From IMG/VR virus record IMGVR_UViG_3300045988_136394, positions 49,940 through 113,939 of that record: 64,000 nt of DNA. One strand, written 5' to 3'. Shown here one piece after another: positions 35,066 to 35,246 of the stretch. The notes under the pieces are model-generated. The model was not told the DNA's origin and ran no database searches. It saw nothing but the letters and a program-made list of their open reading frames with translations. Numbering within the stretch: position 1 is the first letter of the stretch; each line of letters begins with the position of its first letter. Source of the stretch: a virus. A program made the translations under genes and the position numbers.

Positions 35066-35137
35066 TGCAGAAGCTGCCCCTTCTCGCAATCCTTTTTAAA
35101 CAAAAAAACACCCTGCTTTTTAGCAGGGTGTTTTTTT
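35066..35137 (+). ncRNA. Putative small RNA unit 4, convergent with a small hydrophobic-peptide gene
   Basis: Promoter TTGCTT-17-TGcTATAAT at 35031-35059. Bidirectional terminator at 35101-35137. Confidence 0.35.
35101..35137. terminator. Bidirectional intrinsic terminator
   Basis: A7-CACCCTGC-TTTTTA-GCAGGGTG-T7. Confidence 0.6.
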
Positions 35138-35246
35138 ACTTCGTCATTTGCCCCAATCCTGCGCCGATAATTAAAAAGCAAACGCAGAAAAAAACGAAAT
35201 TCATAATTAAGCCGTTTTCTTTTAGAACGGTAAAAAACTTATCCAT
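35136..35246 (-). CDS. 36 aa hydrophobic peptide (MDKFFTVLKENGLIMNFVFFCVCFLIIGAGLGQMTK)
   Basis: Strong Shine-Dalgarno GAGAGGGGGG seven nt before the ATG. Its stop codon lies in the bidirectional terminator shared with small RNA unit 4. Confidence 0.3.
   Translation of the reverse strand: MDKFFTVLKENGLIMNFVFFCVCFLIIGAGLGQMTK

Follow-up and report, generated by a model that had tools for sequence, protein, structure and literature searches.

A membrane-peptide gene under purifying selection and its convergent array of small-RNA-like cassettes in a human gut myophage: partial likeness to type I toxin-antitoxin loci

The DNA discussed here is a stretch of 64,000 nucleotides (nt), positions 49,940 to 113,939 of the IMG/VR virus record IMGVR_UViG_3300045988_136394; the whole stretch is called the window in the following. 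It is phage DNA, and its minus strand carries nearly every gene. On that strand, at 35136..35246, the list of open reading frames (ORFs) contains a gene for a single-pass membrane peptide of 36 amino acids, MDKFFTVLKENGLIMNFVFFCVCFLIIGAGLGQMTK. A short plus-strand unit, here named U5, runs towards it, and the two meet at a common terminator. The original prediction, where U5 figured as unit 4, saw in this arrangement a type I toxin-antitoxin-like pair. The observation as such is confirmed; the toxin-antitoxin reading is partly supported. The reading that we favour, and to which we give about an even chance, is that of a moron-encoded, efficiently translated membrane peptide; the bidirectional terminator would insulate its transcript from six cassettes that resemble small RNAs (sRNAs) and form an array running towards it.

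The peptide gene starts with an ATG at 35244-35246. Six nucleotides ahead of it lies the strong Shine-Dalgarno (SD) sequence that the original prediction had pointed out, GAGAGGGGGG (35253-35262, minus strand); in relatives it contains 5 to 7 G. Residues 13-31 make up the transmembrane core of the product, the best 19-residue Kyte-Doolittle window having a value of 2.57. The motif G28xxxG32 persists as GxxxA in variants, neither proline nor tryptophan occurs, and the tail reads QMTK. By size and character the peptide falls within the generic description of type I toxins, i.e., small (<~60 amino acids) hydrophobic transmembrane proteins.

For comparison, 16 related phage genomes from IMG/VR, 90-96% identical over the intergenic region, were aligned, and further copies of the locus were drawn from ENA, JGI and Logan assemblies. 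None of the 16 aligned genomes interrupts the frame, nor does any of 10 further contigs; its lone length change is an in-frame insertion of 3 nt (L015). Counted by haplotypes, the ORF is intact in 16 of 21. Among these 16 intact haplotypes the ratio of non-synonymous to synonymous polymorphism (pN/pS) is 0.19, and 12 of the 22 polymorphic sites fall on codon position 3 (binomial P=0.033). The amino-acid changes are conservative (T6S, C23V, I27F, G32A, M34V). Because of the low pN/pS, the third-position bias and the in-frame indel, the ORF is a genuine gene under purifying selection. Of course, one might also think of a chance frame in a T-rich stretch that is never translated. An A-rich complementary strand indeed favours hydrophobic pseudo-ORFs, the frame comprises 36 codons only, and it has no homologue outside the lineage. 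Against the signs of selection just mentioned, a strong SD at optimal spacing and the open frame in every aligned genome, this explanation is, however, highly improbable.

The exact window allele of the gene is found in 501 indexed blocks of a metagenome assembly collection, and hundreds of human-gut assemblies of a ~51-kb phage have the ORF among their called genes. The order dUTPase gene, peptide gene, gap of ~625 nt and gene for a 124-residue protein is fixed in 10 of 10 human-gut contigs of 50-53 kb. The peptide gene is nevertheless dispensable, as natural frameshift and deletion alleles occur. In L082 it is frameshifted next to an intact U5, with a product of 62 amino acids on 6 contigs. 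In L038 a deletion extends from the body of the preceding unit, U4, to peptide codon 20. A phmmer search of 1.84 billion representative proteins yielded only relatives of at least 85% identity and two low-complexity matches, and comparison with Pfam, NCBIfam, PHROGs and PDB gave nothing meaningful. When the search was made permissive (E up to 10), Pfam returned only CoV_E at 0.033 and NCBIfam nothing; no curated type I toxin family was matched.

Peptide mRNA and U5 share an intrinsic terminator on both strands (35102-35137), which is a perfect inverted repeat. The arms, 35102-35117 and 35122-35137, measure 16 nt each, are 100% complementary and enclose a loop of 4 nt. The repeat is bordered by an A-run and, at its other end, by a T-run; it can therefore terminate transcription on both strands, as had been proposed. 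The peptide's TAA stop codon (35136-35138), said in the original prediction to lie inside the terminator, overlaps the last two bases of the stem. A pattern scan for terminators passed over this element merely because its T-run counts as stem.

The loop at 35118-35121 flips between TTTT and AAAA among near-identical phages (L009, L014, L016, L011, L006, L015, L017), the characteristic trace that a perfect palindrome leaves when it is inverted. In L081 (1501-1641), represented by a single 2.7-kb Logan contig, a 9-nt deletion takes the stop codon together with the plus-strand T-run of the shared terminator. The outcome would be a peptide of 46 amino acids and a U5 devoid of its U-tract; the deletion may be an assembly error.

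A second intrinsic terminator was found by the terminator scan just past the ribosome-binding site (RBS) of the peptide gene (35265..35299). It works on the plus strand only and consists of a 9-bp stem and TTTTATTTTT. The minus-strand version of this hairpin (35265-35289) is placed 5' of the SD and lacks a U-tract. An A-to-G change in L019 keeps a G-U pair in the plus-strand RNA and creates a C-A mismatch in the minus-strand RNA. Among the intergenic segments scored, the SD-plus-hairpin segment, to which this terminator belongs, has the lowest polymorphism, 0.08 polymorphic sites per nt. Together, the terminators at 35102-35137 and 35265-35299 bracket the peptide gene against plus-strand transcription.

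The plus-strand unit facing the peptide could be located as proposed, with a near-consensus promoter and a strong terminator; the RNA itself is predicted. U5 would be an sRNA of ~75-80 nt (35065..35144, plus strand; the body reaches from ~35065 to 35137). Its promoter (35031..35059, plus strand) combines a -35-like TTGCTT, which is at the same time the 3' arm of the U4 terminator, with the extended -10 box TGCTATAAT at 35051-35059, and is conserved in relatives. The first 20 nt of U5 (35066-35085) are invariant in all 16 aligned genomes, while neighbouring bases vary. This invariant part ends with an anti-SD-like seed, CCCCUUCUC (35077-35085, plus strand), of which one T-to-G variant was seen, in L100. 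All of U5 that is unique (35065-35101) is situated past the peptide's stop codon, and the U5 sequence occurs in this phage lineage only.

Some other possibilities for this segment were dismissed. A plus-strand ORF of 70 amino acids that runs through the terminator (35065..35277) is not coding, its frame being broken by indels in relatives. No convincing plus-strand promoter inside the peptide ORF could be read by eye in 35138-35262, and the promoter scan lists none there. In a permissive Rfam scan of 34450-35400, only matches below threshold turned up, RatA, OrzO-P, ohsC and RsaE among them; these matches are driven by the terminator and were all rejected. The RsaE model, for example, reached 27.9 bits against a gathering score of 79, and the units have no Rfam membership.

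U5 has five companions. From 34544 to 35137, the plus strand carries six tandem units, U0-U5, which are directed against the flanking genes; in each, a strong promoter is followed by a short transcript with its terminator. U0-U4, identified from the terminator scan and the promoter sites, occupy 34544..35044. The promoters of the units come close to consensus: TGNTATAAT is used four times, TGATAAAAT once and TTTACA-17-TATAAT once. Four of the 11 TGNTATAAT sites of the entire window are crowded into 0.5 kb (34544-35059, plus strand). Promoters and terminators are present and conserved. The cargo of a unit is 35-60 nt of unique sequence without an SD; its reading frames are either trivial (4-7 codons) or run into the terminator.

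Exposed C/U-rich motifs occur in three of the units, CUCCCC in a loop of U2, CUCUCC in a loop of U4 and CCCCUUCUC in U5. They look like the anti-SD tail of 16S rRNA. Taken together, U0-U5 display more complementarity to the 82 RBSs of the window than shuffled sequences do. The P values of the individual units are 0.03, 0.79, 0.37, 0.06, <0.005 and 0.44, and combine, by hand and with Fisher's method, to ~0.004. sRNAs with C-rich seeds are familiar from Firmicutes: in RsaE/RoxS and in the RNAIII hairpins with UCCC, unpaired C/U-rich motifs pair with the SD and block initiation. The motifs of U2, U4 and U5 look like these seeds; here, however, they are phage-borne, arranged as a tandem array and outside of any Rfam family.

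The strongest single match belongs to U4. Its segment 34986-34999 (plus strand), GUCAGCUCUCCUGU, forms a helix of 14 nt, with 13 Watson-Crick pairs, with 41488-41501, the RBS of a gene of the baseplate module (40774..41487, minus strand), and the score of this helix was reached by none of 200 shuffles. U4 as a dedicated repressor of that gene had nevertheless to be rejected, since all four combinations of U4 and target alleles are realized in relatives, with no covariation. We treat the match as an unexplained observation. U0 offers a further helix: 16 A/U-rich nucleotides (34578-34593, plus strand) cover the SD together with the start codon of 23561..23977 (minus strand), a gene from the window's other half, which is low in GC, with a shuffle P of 0.03. 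A minus-strand TGGTATAAT is seen at 34839-34847, inside the U3 promoter region, where it faces the bidirectional terminator of U2.

The array is also a place of rearrangement. The terminator-promoter junction is repeated between U0/U1 and U4/U5 (51 nt, 82% identical). Close relatives (L013, L006, L015, L017, L005) have an alternative U4 cargo, a chimeric U4/U0 unit or an extra unit. Insertion sequences (ISs) of the IS200/605 family sit exactly at the junction of promoter and body, in U4 of L019 and in U5 of L083. Such traits recall the promoter-early stem-loop cassettes (PeSLs) of T4-type phages (Arbiol et al. 2010, PMC2839356). Like these, the units are repeated composites in which a terminator stem-loop is joined to a strong sigma-70-like promoter; they are gathered in a plastic region that is not essential, and their cargo is exchanged among near-identical phages. 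A PeSL cassette, however, supplies at its end an SD and a start codon for the ORFan that follows, neither of which is present in the non-coding cargo found here. In further contrast to PeSLs, the cassettes oppose the genes on either side, the presumed host is a Firmicute, and the sequences are not similar.

Rather than functional sRNAs, the six units might be PeSL-like cassettes for regulation or recombination, or might insulate the moron transcriptionally from the tail genes downstream; the peptide would then be an ordinary accessory membrane protein, serving, e.g., superinfection exclusion or lysis timing, without any RNA partner. The repeated junction, the exchanged, additional or chimeric units, the precisely placed insertions and the PeSL-like properties fit this explanation, and so does the lack of co-variation between U4 and the RBS, complementary to it, of the gene that starts at 41487. 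On the other side, the cargo has no ORF, SD or start codon of its own, the first 20 nt of U5 stay invariant amid variable neighbours, and the units surpass shuffles in RBS complementarity. On balance, we consider it unlikely.

The reading to which we incline starts from the surroundings. The peptide locus lies in an island of lower GC content (34-37%) inside the tail region of a phage whose structural genes on either side of the island have 43-45% GC. This island would be a moron, made up of an IS607-like element, the dUTPase gene, the peptide gene and the sRNA array, within the tail-gene region of a myophage. In 35247-35480 (minus strand) no sigma-70 candidate better than 8/12 and none with an extended -10 box was found; a phage-specific promoter may be present. 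A weak TACTAT candidate upstream of the ORF carries indels in relatives and is not conserved. As there is no good promoter between the dUTPase gene and the ORF, the peptide looks like the last cistron after dUTPase. Most likely, it is made from the dUTPase transcription unit; we infer co-transcription of the two genes. The strong, exposed SD should then provide for efficient synthesis of a peptide that would act in the membrane, and its transcript would end at the strong bidirectional terminator. The main role of this terminator would be to insulate the dUTPase-peptide unit from the convergent array U0-U5, of which U5 would be merely the last cassette. If expressed, the C/U-rich, anti-SD-like cassettes are probably general sRNAs that mask ribosome-binding sites. 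The RBS of the peptide may be among the targets of U5, with no obligatory link between the two; the pair would not be a dedicated toxin-antitoxin addiction module.

How far U5 could control the peptide depends on their pairing. CCCCUUCUC in U5 pairs with GAGAGGGGG in the peptide mRNA over 9 bp, including one G-U, with -15.4 kcal/mol. The originally proposed pairing across the SD thus holds for nine positions; the leading G of the proposed 10-mer faces another G and remains unpaired. Seen at the DNA level, CCCCTTCTC (35077-35085) and CCCCCTCTC (35254-35262) form a repeat that matches in 8 of 9 positions and covers the SD, not the ATG. To open the partners takes 5.8 kcal/mol for U5 and 2.7 kcal/mol for the mRNA, which leaves a net interaction of ~-7 kcal/mol. 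The SD itself is accessible and not sequestered, its opening energy being 1.9-2.7 kcal/mol in two transcript models. The 9-nt match resembles the ribosome's own anti-SD sequence, and U5 pairs about equally well with other RBSs, e.g., the ones that belong to the genes with starts at 42665, 62334 and 18821. The pairing of U5 with the SD is only marginally above chance.

Nature has provided three variants of SD or seed, and none of them shows compensation. In L085 a change in the SD turns the G-U pair into an A-U pair, which improves the pairing. In L011 (SD) and in L100 (seed) one pair each is broken without a compensatory change. In L083 an IS605 element has moved between promoter and body of U5, and the peptide is intact; as the 3' flank of the IS, the body of U5 could there still give rise to a transcript.

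A par-like type I toxin-antitoxin module, or in wider terms an antisense-controlled membrane toxin of putative toxicity, is a less likely but still serious alternative. U5, made constitutively, would dock onto the peptide mRNA via the complementary terminator stem-loops and via the helix between CCCCUUCUC and GAGAGGGGG, whereby the SD would be masked and translation blocked. Rare read-through of U5 would produce a full antisense RNA ending at 35289. The peptide would thus be silenced in lysogens or early infection, or the element would be stabilised.

A number of findings speak for such a module and weigh against the reading that we favour. The layout is par-like on three counts: transcription converges, the terminator is shared, and 5' complementarity covers the initiation region. 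The peptide RBS is the second best of the 82 RBSs as a target of U5, by duplex energy as well as by contiguous helix, and dinucleotide shuffles of U5 against this RBS gave P=0.06 for the former and P=0.04 for the latter. The seed of U5 and the SD-plus-hairpin segment are the most conserved intergenic parts. In L038, the only deletion allele seen, U5 is lost along with the C-terminal half of the peptide. Since the plus-strand terminator stands just past the peptide's RBS, a U5 transcript that reads through would copy precisely this gene, in full and in antisense. The small size of the hydrophobic product with its transmembrane segment and GxxxG motif, the strong promoter of U5 and the improved pairing in L085 point in the same direction.

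On the other side of the scale, a promoter for the toxin was not found by the sigma-70 scan upstream of the ORF, the SD is exposed rather than hidden in a 5' stem-loop, and the net interaction energy is ~-7 kcal/mol. L011 and L100 break pairs without compensation, and L083 separates U5 from its promoter next to an intact peptide gene. The peptide matches no type I toxin model. Finally, U5 is one of six cassettes of the same kind, and the other five have no partner peptide.

The comparison with established systems leads to a similarly divided result. In loci of the par family, the promoters are convergent, the terminator acts in both directions, DRa and DRb are present as direct repeats, the SD is sequestered by a 5' stem-loop, and there is an upstream helix as well; their toxin Fst has PXXXG(C) in its hydrophobic domain, a tryptophan that is conserved, and a C-terminal tail that is charged (Weaver 2020, PMC7472228). 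In par(pAD1), as here, the gene of a membrane peptide and a short sRNA, RNA II, converge on one bidirectional intrinsic terminator, and short additional complementarity near the 5' ends covers the translation initiation region of the toxin. Fst homologues, too, reside on phages and mobile elements of low-GC Gram-positive bacteria. The complementary 3' stem-loops that par derives from its shared terminator are equally present (35102-35137). So far, the likeness to fst/RNA II that the original prediction invoked holds; the remainder does not. Of the two convergent promoters only that of the sRNA was detected (35051-35059), the best candidate on the toxin side being an unconserved 8/12. DRa and DRb are replaced by a single imperfect repeat of 9 nt over the SD that leaves the start codon free, and a second repeat could not be detected. 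Instead of sequestering the SD, the hairpin at 35265-35289 comes to its end upstream of it. The loop of the shared terminator, with its 4 nt (UUUU/AAAA), is not a U-turn loop suited for a kissing interaction as in par. PXXXG(C), tryptophan and charged tail are all missing in the peptide, and Pfam and NCBIfam offer no match.

Likeness to txpA/RatA, the second model proposed, extends to general features only. The Bacillus subtilis pairs txpA/RatA, bsrG/SR4 and yonT/SR6 are borne by (pro)phages as well and combine a small hydrophobic toxin with a convergent antisense RNA. Antitoxins of the txpA/RatA type have a unique 3' overlap of ~75-125 nt with the toxin mRNA and act mainly by RNase III-dependent decay. 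At the present locus there is no long unique overlap; U5 and the peptide transcript share the 36-nt terminator palindrome (35102-35137) alone. As those systems depend on the long overlap, the comparison fails. A passage in PMC5848175 describes yonT as being transcribed on a polycistronic mRNA.

The ideas of an sRNA array and of a par-like module can also be merged: the island may be a modular, phage-borne translation-silencing locus of six sRNA cassettes, each transcribed on its own and equipped with an anti-SD-like seed, the cargo being swapped through recombination at the conserved terminator-promoter junctions; U5 and the orphan peptide would form in it a par-like type I module with a new toxin family. 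We consider this combination rather improbable. If a type I module were indeed at work, it would represent a new toxin family without sequence relatives, and par-like control would exist in a widespread, uncultured Clostridia-type phage of the gut, the exact allele being found in ~500 assembly blocks. Even if there is no module, the locus would be a compact case of a phage array of strongly promoted small RNAs with anti-SD-like seeds, and such arrays are poorly documented for phages of gut Firmicutes. The practical value is modest at present and consists in a well-defined candidate peptide and sRNA. The locus also teaches caution: a convergent sRNA that shares its terminator with a hydrophobic ORF is by itself insufficient to establish a toxin-antitoxin system.

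The phage behind the locus belongs to a lineage of ~51-kb Clostridia-type myophages that is prevalent in the human gut. Its large terminase finds its closest matches in uncultured faecal phages and in Clostridium phages at 42% identity. The INPHARED phage collection yielded no DNA match, and the GTDB representative genomes contained no match to a degenerate peptide pattern or to the portal protein and no prophage copy. U5 seed, peptide pattern and terminator-promoter junction were not found outside this IMG/VR lineage, and phage L020, whose dUTPase is 51% identical, has no such peptide. The island is lineage-specific.

The window as a whole is composite. It contains two distinct structural modules of the myovirus type, one at 1-24400 with ~31% GC and the other at 24500-64000 with ~43% GC. 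Each has its own terminases, portal, sheath and tape-measure protein, and each its own dUTPase (18083..18604 and 35357..36301). The two modules could be tandem prophages or a joined assembly. In the 24.5-64 kb module, which harbours the peptide locus, genes for small and large terminase, portal, protease, sheath, tape-measure protein, baseplate and tail fibres were recognized.

The probable upstream cistron of the peptide is a dUTPase fusion gene (35357..36301, minus strand; Pfam PF00692, phrog_135). Its N-terminal extension of ~150 amino acids is variable in length; among relatives the whole products comprise 168, 181, 196, 203, 314 or 328 amino acids. The non-coding stretch of the island measures 845 nt, and beyond it follows the next minus-strand gene (34137..34511), which encodes the 124-residue protein. 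The IS607-like element of the island consists of a serine-recombinase TnpA (37656..38324) and a TnpB (36539..37702). Near them, at 36418-36490, lies a RAGATH-18 RNA, the sole Rfam match in the window above the gathering score, which we read as the omega-RNA of this element.

The region is a hot spot for TnpB-carrying ISs. In the window, the IS607-like element with its RAGATH-18 is placed upstream of the dUTPase gene (36418-38324). L019 has a TnpB-only element between promoter and body of U4 (4990-6440). The IS605 that splits U5 in L083 (1690-3111) contains TnpA and TnpB, and U5 flanks its right end. In the relatives L039, L084 and L085, the site upstream of the dUTPase gene is occupied by a TnpB of 418 amino acids.

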